Below the pieces are notes generated by a model, which ran no database searches, was not told the DNA's origin, and saw only the letters and a list, made by a program, of their open reading frames with translations. A program made the translations under genes and the position numbers. A DNA stretch of 24,638 nt from a virus, in the UHGV virus genome UHGV-0052151, one strand, 5' to 3'. Below, in pieces: positions 11,126-16,812 of this stretch (position 1 is its first letter; each line of letters starts with the position of its first letter).

Positions 11126-12159
11126 TGGGAAAGAGTAAGAAAAACCGCGCTGCGGCGACGAATCAGATCCAGCATAAAAACCAGACTTCAGCCGAAGCAT
11201 TCAGCTTCGGTGATCCCGTTCCAGTACTTGACCGCCGCGAACTGCTGGACTATGTGGAATGTGTTCAGACAGATCGCTGGTATGAGCCTCCCGTCAGCTT
11301 TGACGGACTGGCGCGCACCTTCCGCGCTGCCGTGCATCACAGTTCCCCGATTGCAGTAAAGTGCAACATTCTGACCAGTACCTATATCCCTCATCCGCTG
11401 CTCAGCCAACAGGCTTTTTCGCGTTTTGTGCAGGACTATCTGGTATTTGGTAACGCCTACCTGGAGAAACGCACGAACCGATTCGGTGAAGTTATCGCCC
11501 TTGAGCCTGCGCTGGCAAAATACACCCGACGCGGGTTAGACCTGGATACCTACTGGTTTGTGCAATACGGTATGACAACCCAGCCGTATCAGTTCACGAA
11601 AGGCAGCATTTTTCATCTGATGGAACCGGACATCAACCAGGAGATCTACGGCCTGCCCGGCTATCTTTCTGCCATTCCATCCGCCCTGCTCAACGAATCC
11701 GCCACGCTGTTCCGCCGTAAGTATTACATCAACGGTAGTCATGCAGGCTTCATCATGTACATGACCGACGCCGCGCAGAATCAGGAGGATGTGAACAACC
11801 TCCGCAACGCGATGAAAAGCGCCAAAGGTCCAGGCAACTTCCGCAATCTGTTTATGTACTCGCCTAACGGCAAAAAGGACGGACTTCAGATTATCCCGTT
11901 GTCAGAAGTCGCAGCGAAGGATGAGTTTCTGAATATCAAGAACGTGAGCCGCGATGACATGATGGCAGCACACCGAGTGCCGCCGCAAATGATGGGGATT
12001 ATGCCTAATAATGTCGGGGGGTTTGGGGATGTGGAGAAAGCCAGCCGCGTCTTTGTTCGCAATGAGTTGATACCTCTGCAGAAGCGCCTTCAGGAATTGA
12101 ACGACTGGCTTGGAGAAGAAGTCATGCGTTTTGAAGATTATAATTTAGGTATTGAATGA
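11122..12159 (+). CDS. Q: Portal (capsid vertex) protein
   Basis: 345 aa (P2 gpQ about 344 as I recall); immediately after P. Confidence 0.9.
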   Translation: MMGKSKKNRAAATNQIQHKNQTSAEAFSFGDPVPVLDRRELLDYVECVQTDRWYEPPVSFDGLARTFRAAVHHSSPIAVKCNILTSTYIPHPLLSQQAFSRFVQDYLVFGNAYLEKRTNRFGEVIALEPALAKYTRRGLDLDTYWFVQYGMTTQPYQFTKGSIFHLMEPDINQEIYGLPGYLSAIPSALLNESATLFRRKYYINGSHAGFIMYMTDAAQNQEDVNNLRNAMKSAKGPGNFRNLFMYSPNGKKDGLQIIPLSEVAAKDEFLNIKNVSRDDMMAAHRVPPQMMGIMPNNVGGFGDVEKASRVFVRNELIPLQKRLQELNDWLGEEVMRFEDYNLGIE

Positions 12160-12164
12160 TATTT

Positions 12165-12195
12165 AAAAGCCTGTACAAACAGGCTTTTATTCTTT
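12165..12195. terminator. Bidirectional rho-independent terminator between convergent Q and cargo operon
   Basis: AAAAGCCTGT-acaa-ACAGGCTTTT hairpin with an A-run on one side and a T-run on the other, 6 nt after the Q stop. Confidence 0.6.
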
Positions 12196-12228
12196 AGTTT
12201 AAAATCACCAAGACATGAGCATTAAAAC

Positions 12229-12894
12229 TTAAAGATCCGGATCTACAGGCTCATGATATAGATTTACAGGGTAATGAATAACTTCATAATTCAGTTGAGT
12301 AACTGTGTGAACATGCTGGCTATAAAAAACCAATGGATTTTTTTGACAAGGAGTAATCGTTATAGATTTACAGGCATGAATTCTTGGTGCGAATTTATCT
12401 AAATGCGCCTTCCAGTTGCTCATCATTTCATTACATTTTCTATTACGAGTATAGATAATCAATCCACCACTTGCGCTGTCTACGGTCCCTGTACTATATC
12501 GCTCAGTGAGTTGAGCATACCCTTTAAATAAATAACTATATGAAGATGTATGTTTTTTGGCTTCGCCATGCCAAATATAATCCTTTAGTTTTATTGTAAT
12601 ATCACAATGTCCGCGCTGATTATTTTCATGATATGCTTCAATGCCCATATCTTTATTTTTGATATTGGCCAATAAAATTAAAGTAAGCTGATCTTCTGTT
12701 AAATCGAAGTTTAACTTATTTGAATTCTCTTCTATTTCCTTTACAGCAGAATCAAGTTCAATCCTGACAAATTGTTTGAAATTATCGTACGATTGAAGTG
12801 CAAATCTAACACGAGTAATAGAAGCATTAATACGCTGAAGAAAAATATCATTATCAATATCAGCCAAACTCATTGCTGCAGACATTTTTAACAT
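12229..12894 (-). CDS. Hypothetical protein, third gene of AT-rich three-gene operon; weak PD-(D/E)xK-like motif
   Basis: 221 aa; ATG at 12894 shares one base with the upstream stop (TGATG); AT-rich codons; segment GHCDITIKLKDYIWHGEAKK; no family recognised. Confidence 0.6.
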   Translation of the reverse strand: MLKMSAAMSLADIDNDIFLQRINASITRVRFALQSYDNFKQFVRIELDSAVKEIEENSNKLNFDLTEDQLTLILLANIKNKDMGIEAYHENNQRGHCDITIKLKDYIWHGEAKKHTSSYSYLFKGYAQLTERYSTGTVDSASGGLIIYTRNRKCNEMMSNWKAHLDKFAPRIHACKSITITPCQKNPLVFYSQHVHTVTQLNYEVIHYPVNLYHEPVDPDL

Positions 12895-13328
12895 CAGATA
12901 ATATCCTTTGATTTAGATTCATCTAATGTAAAAAAAGGAAATACGAATGACTTATAGTCATACATAAGCTCCCCTGTAAATGGGTTTGCTAAAGATTGAC
13001 TGATTTCCGCCTCAATAACTTCCTCTATTTCAAGTTCTACAGGGTCATGAAAATCATCAACGAACCAATAATTGAGTTTTAAAAAATCAACCTTTGGGCT
13101 ACAAAGAATTTGTATGGCCGGATAGATAACCTGCTCATACGTTTCTGGCTGTAAAACCTTATTATAACCACCAGCTATATTAAATAAATCCTTATAACTT
13201 AAAGCTATATTTGATGATTTTTTAGCCCTTGCCTCGATTTCATCGTACAAATAGCAAGCTAACGCCCCAATTTCAGGGCGTTCTGCACACATTTCTTTGA
13301 TGATCTTGGGCATATCACCATCCTTCAT
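12894..13328 (-). CDS. Hypothetical acidic protein, second gene of the operon
   Basis: Track ORF 12894-13340 (TTG); ATG at 13328 with GGAG 6 nt upstream preferred; acidic C-terminal half (EIEEVIEAEISQS...); no family recognised. Confidence 0.55.
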   Translation of the reverse strand: MKDGDMPKIIKEMCAERPEIGALACYLYDEIEARAKKSSNIALSYKDLFNIAGGYNKVLQPETYEQVIYPAIQILCSPKVDFLKLNYWFVDDFHDPVELEIEEVIEAEISQSLANPFTGELMYDYKSFVFPFFTLDESKSKDII

Positions 13329-13340
13329 TGCTGACTCCAA

Positions 13341-14447
13341 TTATAATATCAGCTTTGTGAGGGTTTCGAAATCATCTTTGGATATACATTTACTTAATAT
13401 AGCATAGTTAACAGGAGAGCAACTACTCCCTCCTAGATGCCTGCGGAGTGTTCCCGGAATGATAAGCTCTACGTTATCCGCTAATTGCAGTTTTGGATTA
13501 TTTCTATCAACTCTAATTCCAATACGATACAAACCAATACTGCCTACTGCTTTGATGCCTTCCTTATTAAACAAATCATCACGTAAGTCTTTAGTGGCCA
13601 CATTTTTCTTTTCTTTATGCGTAGTCCCCTCATTCGTCAAAAATGACAAATCAAAGACTTTATAGCTTAATTTTGAATAAGGCAATGAATTTTGTTTGAA
13701 AATTGGCTCAATTAACGGATAAAAATCTTTTTCCGATGATTTAAATTCATAACCGACATGATTATACAATTCACGAATAATGTTACTCTTTGCAAAAGTA
13801 ACATTATCACCAATAATATTACCATTAGTATCTACCAAAACATGAATTTTATTAGTAACAGAGTCTAATATACAGACATCAAAACATTGTCGCTTTTCTT
13901 TTCGCTTTGCAATAATTTCATCAAACTGCTTGTATTGCGCAAGTGCTGACGGGGGAATTTTTTCTCTTACAACTAATTCTCTGACAGATGAAAAAACAAG
14001 TATTGACTGGGTGTTTTGAATAGAATAATTAACAAGTTCAGGTTGATTTTTTACAGCATTTTGCAATTGGACATCATCAAGGATCGAATCAACCAATAAT
14101 GATGGTTGATTCATCAAATTCCATTGAAAACTAAATCTGTCATTTAGTGTTTTAATTACACTATTATCTACAGTCAAACTAAATATTGCTTTTTCACCAT
14201 AAACGACCTGACCAAAAATTAGGTCATTTACGTTTGCCATAATGCCATCAAACTTTTGCCTATCTTTACTTTTAAGATCAATGAGGCTTTCTAGTATTTT
14301 TTCGTTTGTTGCTTCACGCCCCCTACCTGTTGGCAGCCCTAAAGACGCAATAATTGGCCTTGCAACGTTCCATGTGAAACGTTCAGTTAAGGTCAAGATC
14401 GACTTTAACTCAGACTTAGAAAGCACTACTGGGACACTACCTGTCAT
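13341..14447 (-). CDS. Hypothetical protein, first gene of the operon
   Basis: Track ORF to 14456 (GTG); ATG at 14447 preceded by AGGTG; about 368 aa; no P-loop or other motif recognised. Confidence 0.6.
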   Translation of the reverse strand: MTGSVPVVLSKSELKSILTLTERFTWNVARPIIASLGLPTGRGREATNEKILESLIDLKSKDRQKFDGIMANVNDLIFGQVVYGEKAIFSLTVDNSVIKTLNDRFSFQWNLMNQPSLLVDSILDDVQLQNAVKNQPELVNYSIQNTQSILVFSSVRELVVREKIPPSALAQYKQFDEIIAKRKEKRQCFDVCILDSVTNKIHVLVDTNGNIIGDNVTFAKSNIIRELYNHVGYEFKSSEKDFYPLIEPIFKQNSLPYSKLSYKVFDLSFLTNEGTTHKEKKNVATKDLRDDLFNKEGIKAVGSIGLYRIGIRVDRNNPKLQLADNVELIIPGTLRRHLGGSSCSPVNYAILSKCISKDDFETLTKLIL

Positions 14448-14597
14448 AACTTGCACCTAGTCATCCAAAAAGCAATAAGAATTTGCTCTTGTCTTAATTT
14501 ATCCTTCGATACCTAACAAATTACCTCAATGTTGAAAAAATTTGCAAGCCATTTGCTTCTAAAAAGCGACCTTACTCAGAGTGTTACAAAACTAAGC

Positions 14598-14633
14598 GAG
14601 CGCGCGCTCGTATCCCCGCCACGCCTGCCCGCT
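14598..14633. other. Candidate cos (cohesive-end) site
   Basis: Minus strand reads GGCGTGGCGGGGATACGAG; its first 13 nt match the P2/186 19-nt cohesive end as I recall it (GGCG[A/T]GGCGGGGAAAGCA[C/T]). It sits in a GC-rich island between Q and A, where cos is expected; a 14-bp perfect palindrome CGAGCGCGCGCTCG (14598-14611) is adjacent. Confidence 0.4.
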
Positions 14634-14947
14634 TTATGTAGTGGTTTTCATGCACCTGCATGTTCTACGTAAAAGCCCGCTAGTTCTGGCGAGCCTTAGC
14701 AAAAACGATCCTTAAACGATCATGCGATTTCATGCAGCATAGTCATGCACTGTCTAAGAGAAGTGAAAGTCCGTATCTGAATGACCACTTGAAAAACGAA
14801 ACATACAGACTTACAAAGATGAAGCTCTACTGTGAGCGAGGAACATACATAGTTGCTCTGTAATAGCCAAATTTTAAGCAGGAAATCTCTTTTTTATGAC
14901 AAAACTATAAAGAAAAACAGACCGTTTCATCGCTCGATGAAAATATA

Positions 14948-16525
14948 CTACAATACTTTTCTCTCGATGGTATTTTTAATAGTCAACATATCTTTAGGAA
15001 TACTTTTTTTCCCCTCTATACGTATGGTAAACACAAAAAGAATAACGGCTGATCTCACAATTTTCATGAGTTGTAAGAGCTGTTTCTCAAACTTTTCTTT
15101 CTCAATAAACCTCACCTCATCAAAAAACCCATAAGAATTATATAAATCAACTAACATGTCTTTCTCGTGAATAACTAACAGTTTATGTTCTAAATCATTC
15201 CTCCATTCTTTAAAAAAAGCAAGCTCACCATTTTTATCATTCAAATCCATAGCAATACTAAACAAACCCAGCAATCCTTTATTATTTATTTTGTTTATTT
15301 TAAGCTTTCTTTTTTCATCACTAATCCGCCAGAAGTTATGAAAGTATATATGTCCTCTATCTGGTTTTAAATCAAATAATTGACACAGAGCAACTGCTAT
15401 TTTATCCAAGATACCAAAGCAAGCTCTAAATGCAACCCTTAACTTCTCAACATTTTCATACAATATTTCTCCATTATACAATTCAGAATAACATACCTCC
15501 GAATCCTCATCAAAAAACTCACTATCAACCTTATATTCAAAAAACATTTTTCGTGCTAAGGAATACTCAGCTTTAAGTCTATTTAACACCATTTCCATTG
15601 GCACTATAAAATCACCAAACACACCTTCCTCGGTGGTAGCAATAGTTATATTATCTTTAGATGACGCATAACAATTGCAATATAGCGAATGATCAGACAA
15701 CATTAGATTATTATCTATACAAAACCTCTGGTAGTTTGATAAAGTATCATACTCCTCCTGCGTGAGCCTTTCATCTGTACTTATATCCTCTATGCCATAT
15801 ACACATGATTCACTCAATATACTTTCGTTGTACTTTATTTTTCTTTGAAGAGCAACCTTCCATGAAGGAAAACATTTCCCTGACTTTATTGCACACTCAT
15901 AACCTCGAATAACTTCTTTAATCATTTTATATGTATATGTTGTAGATAATTCATTAAGCAATTCTAATGCCTCAGATCTGTTTACCCACGCCTGAGGAAT
16001 TGAGTTATCAATAGATATTGCTTGTTCATAATAATCCATTGATTCAGATATACGATATTGTTTTTTTAATACATTAGCTAGATTAACTATTAAATCAGGG
16101 GGCACCCATCCATCTTCTTGTGAAAGTTTAAACGCTTTCCAGTAATTATTTTTTACATCATTCAGCTTAATGAAACTATCAATATCTGCATTGTCATTAG
16201 GATTAAAATCAAGAACTGCGCTCATTCCATTTGCCAAGTTATAGTAATATAAGGATTCTTTCATTATAGTCAGAAATTCATTTTTATTGTTTATAAAGAT
16301 ATTTAAGCCTTCCTCTGCTATATTTTTTACATTACTAAAACTTCCGATATCAATAAGATTTCCGGCCAAATTAGATAATATAATTATTCTATTTTCTTTG
16401 ATTGTATTTATCTCATCGATACCGTTAAGAATATCCTTTACATTTTTATAGGCAGAATCAAATGAACCTGCATTAATAAGATCATCTACGAACCCCATTT
16501 TTGAAACAACATAGTTGATATCCAT
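14948..16525 (-). CDS. Hypothetical 525-aa protein; helical/TPR-like N-terminal region, C-terminal Rx4H (HEPN-like) motif
   Basis: ATG at 16525 with AGAGGA 6 nt upstream; strongly AT-rich; occupies the old/tin position of P2; no Walker A, no reverse-transcriptase YxDD motif; WRNDLEHK near residue 442. Confidence 0.6.
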   Translation of the reverse strand: MDINYVVSKMGFVDDLINAGSFDSAYKNVKDILNGIDEINTIKENRIIILSNLAGNLIDIGSFSNVKNIAEEGLNIFINNKNEFLTIMKESLYYYNLANGMSAVLDFNPNDNADIDSFIKLNDVKNNYWKAFKLSQEDGWVPPDLIVNLANVLKKQYRISESMDYYEQAISIDNSIPQAWVNRSEALELLNELSTTYTYKMIKEVIRGYECAIKSGKCFPSWKVALQRKIKYNESILSESCVYGIEDISTDERLTQEEYDTLSNYQRFCIDNNLMLSDHSLYCNCYASSKDNITIATTEEGVFGDFIVPMEMVLNRLKAEYSLARKMFFEYKVDSEFFDEDSEVCYSELYNGEILYENVEKLRVAFRACFGILDKIAVALCQLFDLKPDRGHIYFHNFWRISDEKRKLKINKINNKGLLGLFSIAMDLNDKNGELAFFKEWRNDLEHKLLVIHEKDMLVDLYNSYGFFDEVRFIEKEKFEKQLLQLMKIVRSAVILFVFTIRIEGKKSIPKDMLTIKNTIERKVL

Positions 16526-16812
16526 TCAATCCTCTTTAAACTAAGCTAATAATACCAATCATTATATGGATGAGATCAATATAGAACATGCCATCTCCGG
16601 CAAAAATCGTACTACATCAGACCAGTGCCCTTCAAATAATATAAATTGAACTTAGATACTTCTGCTTCAACCAGTGTGTTAAATCCATCGCTTGAACTCA
16701 GAACAAAAAGCGGACGATCACTTATCAAAATGGCCGTCCACCTAACGCCTCGTTTCACTCGTTGCCCAAAATAGTCCCCCATCAGAATGAATCCTCTTGG
16801 GGGCAACGTTTC

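Follow-up and report, generated by a model that had tools for sequence, protein, structure and literature searches.

ApeA, AbiD/AbiF, PrrC/RloC and the CBS-HEPN protein DS-11 each join a regulatory or sensor domain and a HEPN ribonuclease (RNase) domain in one polypeptide, are found on mobile elements or in defence islands, and do not need a partner gene (PMC3710099, PMC13092281). The LA2681 family of HEPN proteins was described computationally as fused to TPR repeats, with the remark that it lies "in operon with TPR" (Anantharaman et al. 2013, PMC3710099). In P2, the cos-proximal region between gpA and gpQ is a defence hotspot, and old and tin are located there (Rousset et al. 2022, PMC9122126). 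Here, we analyse a gene of 525 amino acids at positions 14948 to 16525, on the minus strand, of the virus genome UHGV-0052151, a stretch of 24,638 nucleotides that we call the window. Its product is an LA2681-family TPR-HEPN protein, an assignment of which we are nearly certain, and the gene on its own makes up a self-contained accessory cassette, or moron, within the defence hotspot next to cos in a P2/186-like prophage.

With regard to the LA2681 family (PF18733), the protein matches the full-length model, retains the Rx4H motif and carries the same RefSeq name, and no structural difference was seen. It has the one-polypeptide layout, the mobile-element setting and the lack of need for a partner gene in common with ApeA, AbiD/AbiF, PrrC/RloC and DS-11, but no sequence match in PADLOC or Pfam leads from it to any of them, and its regulatory domain is a TPR-like repeat instead of a CBS domain, an ABC ATPase or the N-terminal domain of ApeA. 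The toxins of HEPN-MNT (HepT-MntA) systems are stand-alone proteins of about 130 amino acids with an adjacent nucleotidyltransferase antitoxin, whereas the HEPN domain studied here is fused and has no MNT neighbour. The Avs/STAND proteins likewise fuse a TPR-type repeat to an effector of the nuclease type, for which a sensor-effector logic has been proposed (PMC9122126), but they have a central nucleoside triphosphatase (NTPase); the present protein has no such module, and its repeat domain is N-terminal and short. With P2 old and tin and other hotspot cargo, the gene shares its slot, its AT-rich moron character and its predicted purpose, the exclusion of other phages, while Old (ATPase plus TOPRIM) and Tin are unrelated to it in sequence and domains.

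A first-pass annotation of the window, made from the sequence alone, had labelled the gene an orphan. That label does not stand, given 182 homologs, a Pfam model, a RefSeq name, the family description from 2013 and a hotspot listing from 2022. The open reading frame (ORF) at 14948 to 16525 has 100% DNA identity to the RefSeq gene whose product is WP_000354145.1, and RefSeq already names this product after the LA2681 family. Rousset et al. list WP_000354145 as "HEPN_LA2681" at least 14 times in the P2-hotspot arrangements of their supplementary file 6, and it does not appear in their tables of tested constructs (PMC9122126). The gene is thus a catalogued candidate in a well-studied hotspot, neither an orphan nor a new kind of element.

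Domain architecture and predicted active site

The protein is divided as follows.
14948 to 16525, minus strand: ORF of the LA2681-family TPR-HEPN protein, 525 amino acids, ATG start
15791 to 16525, minus strand: TPR-like helical repeat domain, residues 1-245 (AlphaFold2, Foldseek, phmmer)
15611 to 15790, minus strand: linker or neck, residues 246-305 (alignment of 40 homologs; invariant H279, C283, C285 and D291)
15005 to 15610, minus strand: LA2681-type HEPN domain, residues 306-507
15185 to 15202, minus strand: Rx4H motif RNDLEH, residues 442-447 (alignment and the end of an AlphaFold2 helix)

The HEPN assignment comes from Pfam, where residues 309-504 match HEPN_LA2681 with 132.4 bits against a cut-off of 27 (E=1.8e-38), over positions 9-204 of the 204 in the model. 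The full-length AlphaFold2 model, built from 40 homologs, is all-alpha with a mean predicted local distance difference test score (pLDDT) of 87 and a predicted template modelling score of 0.88. In this model, the C-terminal domain is an all-alpha helical bundle in which a core helix ends in the motif, as expected of a HEPN protein: the helix at 436-447 ends with RNDLEH and is followed by a beta-hairpin. The HEPN core contains a helical insert of about 45 residues in addition to the hairpin after the motif, and a region of 300 residues is fused to its N-terminus. No match for the HEPN half was obtained among PDB sequences, either with phmmer, which matched the TPR part only, or with a C-terminal profile, and no solved structure was found for the LA2681 family. 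NCBIfam and PHROGs gave no match to the gene.

The N-terminal domain is modelled as 12 helices over residues 3-240 that form a TPR-like solenoid of about six hairpins (pLDDT about 90). Foldseek matched it with probability 1.0 to the TPR domain of O-GlcNAc transferase, to consensus TPR (CTPR) proteins and to MamA, and phmmer matched engineered and consensus TPR proteins and the TPR region of O-GlcNAc transferase with E values down to 2.5e-11. These sequence-level matches are confined to residues 145-190, and no Pfam TPR model reached its threshold, the best being TPR_10 with 19.3 bits against 27.5 for a single repeat at residues 145-174. A peptide that had been singled out as TPR-like in the first-pass annotation (residues 165-190) falls inside this one TPR-matching stretch. 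The accompanying proposal that the N-terminal two-thirds of the protein are helical and repeat-like was right about the presence of a repeat and too generous about its extent, since only about half of the protein (residues 1-245) is occupied by it and the rest is linker and HEPN domain. TPR and HEPN had both been named there as folds to look for, and the two were recovered by Foldseek and Pfam, respectively; no Pfam Abi match was found for the protein.

The same annotation had excluded an Old-like protein and a reverse transcriptase, and we agree on both. No Walker A pattern was found in the 525-residue protein, and it has no Pfam match to an ATPase, TOPRIM or reverse transcriptase domain, nor to the NB-ARC, NACHT or AAA NTPase families. 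BLASTP gave no similarity to Tin and E>3 against the part of the Old sequence that was compared.

A word-indexed search returned 182 homologs. Nearly all of the best 120 of the 182 have a length of 510-550 amino acids, and their alignments cover the whole protein at 38-85% identity; the sources of these 120 are Enterobacter, Yersinia, Salmonella, Erwinia, Cronobacter, Pantoea, Vibrio, Pseudomonas, Cellvibrio, Polaromonas and metagenomes. A HMMER scan of 1.84 billion cluster representatives gave 121 matches at E<=1e-30 and 379 at E<=1e-10. Judged by these searches, the family is small and the two-domain layout of about 525 residues is common to most of its full-length members. This agrees with the TPR fusion given as a family trait by Anantharaman et al. 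(2013): the N-terminus is TPR-like, and the length of about 510-550 residues is kept in most full-length homologs.

An active HEPN RNase is marked by an Rx4-6H motif located where a core helix ends, by N, D or H directly after the R, and by an upstream conserved acidic residue, and the R and H of the motif have been shown to be essential in RNase L, PrrC and RloC (PMC3710099). In the alignment of 40 homologs, with identities down to 38%, R442, N443, E446 and H447 are invariant, and no Rx4-6H other than RNDLEH is conserved in the protein; a second such string, R390-GHIYF-H396, was dropped because it is not conserved across the family. The first HEPN helix holds an invariant block of M310, E311, L314, N315, R316, K318, E320 and R325, and E360, R363 and D374 are invariant as well, so that four invariant acidic residues (E311, E320, E360 and D374) lie upstream of the motif. 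All of these marks of an active HEPN RNase are thus found in the protein.

This conservation bears directly on the possibility that the HEPN domain is catalytically inert and that the protein is only a TPR scaffold or an RNA- or protein-binding adaptor. Loss of the active site has occurred in some HEPN families (PMC3710099); but the full RNxxEH and the upstream acidic residues are invariant family-wide, as selection on catalysis would produce, and we consider an inert domain very improbable.

The two halves of the protein differ in their conservation. Mean pairwise identity is 38% for the N-terminal half and 59% for the C-terminal half overall, and 70% versus 86% within the close enterobacterial clade; by this measure, evolution is faster in the N-terminal half.

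A set of conserved histidine and cysteine residues was also seen in the neck and the first HEPN helices. All 40 homologs have H279, C283 and C285 (15671-15691) and C369, and almost all of them have C345 and C381. This cluster could be a metal-binding or redox site.

A one-gene cassette in the P2 hotspot

The gene lies in the following context.
14843 to 16691, minus strand: swapped one-gene cassette, 1,849 base pairs (bp), GC content 0.31 (BLASTN against Escherichia coli S40)
16526 to 16691, minus strand: cassette-borne upstream region with TATAAT at 16561-16566, AGAGGA at 16530-16535 and a hairpin at 16589-16602
14612 to 14625, minus strand: 186-type cos core, the reverse complement of which reads GGCGTGGCGGGGAT; an anchor for the context, outside the cassette

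The coordinates and length given for the gene in the first-pass annotation agree with the ORF list, and its description there as AT-rich and preceded by a ribosome-binding site is borne out by a GC content of 0.307, compared to 0.53-0.56 in the flanking phage backbone, and by AGAGGA at 16530-16535, 4 nucleotides ahead of the ATG. The low-GC island is wider than the ORF, extending from about 12000 to 16700, and is interrupted by a GC-richer stretch at about 14590-14660 in which the cos core is located. On the non-cos side of the gene are a DinI-like gene (Pfam DinI, E=1.3e-22) and gpA (Phage_GPA, E=1.9e-127); past cos, there are three further AT-rich genes followed by the portal gene Q and the terminase gene P. 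The cos was assigned to the 186 type by reading the sequence. The exact P2 cos 19-mer was not matched in a search that allowed up to 3 mismatches, and the cos-flanking sequence is also present in pFR109, the cloned P2-hotspot construct of Rousset et al. The gene had been placed between a cos-like island and an SOS operon, in the position where P2 carries old and tin, and this placement is confirmed: a 186-type cos lies on one side and DinI and gpA on the other, and the locus is the cos-proximal gpA-gpQ region (PMC9122126). E. coli isolate F437 (NZ_OY754398.1) is annotated with this same gene order and shows 100% identity over the HEPN gene and the three genes across cos.

The limits of the cassette were given by comparison with a near-identical prophage of E. 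coli S40 (NZ_CP010235.1; locus L017, 4722-6279), in which the backbone and the three-gene cassette across cos are shared but DarT and a macro-domain protein (DarTG) take the slot of the HEPN gene. Homology of the backbone to S40 stops at 16692 and restarts at 14842. Since the swap junctions are at these two positions, the cassette is 14843-16691 and holds a single ORF, and the comparison is a clean case of cassette swapping at fixed junctions. In strain MS 115-1, a gene for a DUF6694 lipoprotein occupies the slot.

In E. coli, Yersinia and Salmonella alike, the gene travels together with about 150 bp of upstream sequence, and the TATAAT is invariant in the cross-species alignment. A scan for consensus sigma-70 promoters made no call in this segment. 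The shared travel of a segment that contains TATAAT and the ribosome-binding site fits with expression of the gene from a promoter of its own.

The upstream region also contains a hairpin, TGCC-GGAGA-TGGCA (16589-16602, minus strand), about 25 nucleotides upstream of the TATAAT. The copies in Yersinia and Salmonella retain it, the former with a change compatible with G-U pairing, and it is probably not a terminator because no T-run follows it. Between DinI and the HEPN gene, an ORF of 64 codons with a TTG start (16612-16806, minus strand) straddles the junction of backbone and cassette at 16692; it has no RefSeq annotation and is probably spurious.

Distribution on mobile elements

The HEPN gene was present in 11 of 5,426 RefSeq complete E. 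coli genomes, always chromosomal, as a single copy and with at least 99.5% identity. Two further carriers that were inspected among them had it in the same slot, between DinI and cos in a P2-like prophage. In carriers other than the window, an AIPR gene, or IS2 and a DUF262 gene, was seen across cos. A tblastn search of the deposited phage genomes in INPHARED gave no match, while IMG/VR gave six viral contigs, three of them P2-like and carrying the gene with different content across cos.

Outside this slot, homologs were seen as solitary genes on elements of several kinds. A Cellvibrio mobile element with a relaxase gene carries a solitary homolog together with AbiEii, Fic, a HigBA-like pair and ArdA, and a solitary homolog lies near a Cap4 nuclease gene in the cargo of a Vibrio Tn7-like element. 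In a Salmonella lambdoid prophage the homolog is located beside the antiterminator Q, and in islands of Yersinia, Pantoea and Pseudomonas homologs are accompanied by integrase fragments, AbiEii or a PAAR toxin. A further homolog (HEPN_LA2681 match, E=8.2e-41) is at the insertion sequence-flanked edge of a Mu-like prophage (locus L024). No neighbour was conserved across the contexts inspected, and neither an antitoxin-like partner nor an MNT nucleotidyltransferase gene was found in them. The cassette is mobile without a partner gene and occurs on unrelated mobile elements.

Two of these loci have a gene close to the homolog. At the edge of the Mu-like prophage (L024, 2360-4663), the homolog, which is 41% identical, begins 12 nucleotides after a gene for a 767-residue protein without a Pfam domain, and in Vibrio (locus L007, 9619-11487) a gene for a 622-residue protein with no recorded Pfam match follows 40 nucleotides after the homolog. 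Some members of the family may thus have a partner gene, a possibility also hinted at by the words "in operon with TPR" of Anantharaman et al.

Predicted function and alternatives

We propose that the gene is a stand-alone prophage defence gene encoding a self-inhibited, infection-triggered RNase that aborts infection, and we put the probability of this whole chain at roughly 0.55. The lysogen would produce the protein, and the N-terminal domain would hold it in an inactive state; such autoinhibition is suggested because no antitoxin gene travels with the HEPN gene. Infection by another phage would be sensed when the repeat domain binds a phage protein or an infection-altered host protein, and this would bring HEPN domains together, most likely by pairing. 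The active protein would then act as a metal-independent endoribonuclease that cuts tRNA, rRNA or mRNA, cellular or phage, and the cleavage would halt translation and abort the infection. As a prediction, the guess in the first-pass annotation of a single-gene abortive-infection or defence protein is upheld by the intact, invariant HEPN motif, the TPR fusion with its faster-evolving N-terminal half, the hotspot position, the one-gene cassette with its spread over mobile elements and the exchange with DarTG; the novelty it implied is not. A defensive role for the family has also been predicted by DefensePredictor, which scores the E. coli LA2681-family protein WP_244588239.1 as a predicted novel defence gene, and the family is missing from its file of tested constructs with DS designations (file 2). 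The protein scored there is just 335 amino acids long, and several other database homologs are N-terminally short (306-441 residues).

Several points weigh against the proposed chain. RNase activity, autoinhibition, trigger, dimerisation and abortive outcome are all drawn by analogy, the sources being RNase L/Ire1 KEN, PrrC, RloC, Cas13, Csm6 and HepT. The N-terminal half contains the invariant polar residues D59, Y95, N99, W129, Q156, R158 and R183, for which a conserved ligand or an intramolecular contact fits equally well as a variable sensor of phage proteins. Foldseek returned nothing significant for the HEPN half, and fold matches between helical bundles are promiscuous. PADLOC-DB v2.0.0 gave no significant match, the nearest being a generic TPR model (E=3.5e-4) and Csx1/Csm6 (E=0.074), and full-text literature searches found no experimental study of any LA2681-family member. 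Rousset et al. made two HEPN constructs, pFR83 ("HEPN-TPR", P4 locus) and pFR103 ("Putative HEPN", P2), and both are listed solely among the additional systems tested and not among the validated ones (PMC9122126), so that a HEPN gene in a hotspot is not guaranteed to give a detectable phenotype. The present gene is neither of the two (BLASTP E>1).

A more specific version of the defence reading can be put forward only tentatively, and we think it doubtful that all of it is correct. The LA2681 protein may be a minimal, NTPase-free pattern-recognition immune protein in which the TPR domain binds a phage protein and releases or dimerises the HEPN RNase, with H279, C283 and C285, and possibly C369, as a metal or redox switch. 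If so, it would establish a further family of validated single-gene defence, new and without precedent in the LA2681 HEPN clade, with an activation unlike that of the ATP-driven Avs/NLR proteins. Should the broader prediction of a defence gene hold, the E. coli defence repertoire would gain one more validated single-gene HEPN system, and the clade, described computationally in 2013, its first phenotype. The cassette of 1.85 kb, apparently with its own upstream control region, is easily cloned, and escape mutants could show what the short TPR domain recognises.

Of the other functions considered, the most probable is that of a selfish module, toxin-like or competitive, that plays no part against phages and might, for example, stabilise the prophage or turn the HEPN RNase on plasmids, on satellites like P4 or on mobile elements of other kinds. 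HEPN domains do act as toxins of toxin-antitoxin systems (PMC3710099), the gene occurs on several kinds of mobile element, and homologs are found beside toxin-antitoxin genes (HigBA-like, AbiEii, Fic and PIN/PhdYeFM) and a PAAR toxin of the type VI secretion system. The lack of a conserved antitoxin-like partner argues against this role, as do the validated anti-phage systems that fill the same slot in sister prophages and the defensive score that the machine-learning predictor gives to the family, and we regard it as unlikely.

A role for the prophage itself is less probable still. The gene could encode an RNA-processing or regulatory factor for induction or lytic growth, or a counter-defence; it adjoins replication and SOS-related genes (gpA and DinI), and some phages encode endoribonucleases of their own. 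Against such a role, the gene has only 11 carriers among the 5,426 E. coli genomes, and other genes fill the slot in most P2-like prophages; its GC content of 0.31 is foreign, and close homologs are found outside phages, on the Tn7-like element, the relaxase-bearing element and genomic islands. Finally, a multi-gene system made up of the HEPN gene and the genes at 12229-14456 or DinI is suggested by four adjacent AT-rich genes on the same strand but is largely excluded, since only 1 of the 11 HEPN-gene genomes carries the three-gene cassette, the HEPN gene is missing from 20 of the 21 cassette genomes, three P2-like viral contigs carry the HEPN gene with other content across cos, cos puts the two modules at opposite ends of the packaged genome, and DinI is conserved backbone.

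The adjacent three-gene cassette

The other half of the P2 hotspot in the window, between cos and the portal gene Q, is taken up by three abutting AT-rich genes on the minus strand (12229-14456, GC 0.34) that encode proteins of 371, 148 and 221 amino acids. This cassette was found in 21 of the 5,426 E. coli genomes as two alleles, with 99.7% and 85% identity. Its identification with the validated "hp+hp+hp" system of Rousset et al. was considered and rejected, as the two are unrelated. The idea that it forms one system with the HEPN gene was rejected on the co-occurrence counts, and we treat the two as independent because only 1 of the 21 genomes with the cassette also has the HEPN gene and because the content across cos varies. 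No Pfam, NCBIfam or PADLOC match was obtained for the three genes, which match PHROGs 12777, 11490 and 9664, all of "unknown function". The cassette looks like a three-gene defence candidate, and its third protein contains a D...E-A-K pattern, HCDITIKLKDYIWHGEAKK, that by eye resembles the motif of PD-(D/E)xK nucleases.

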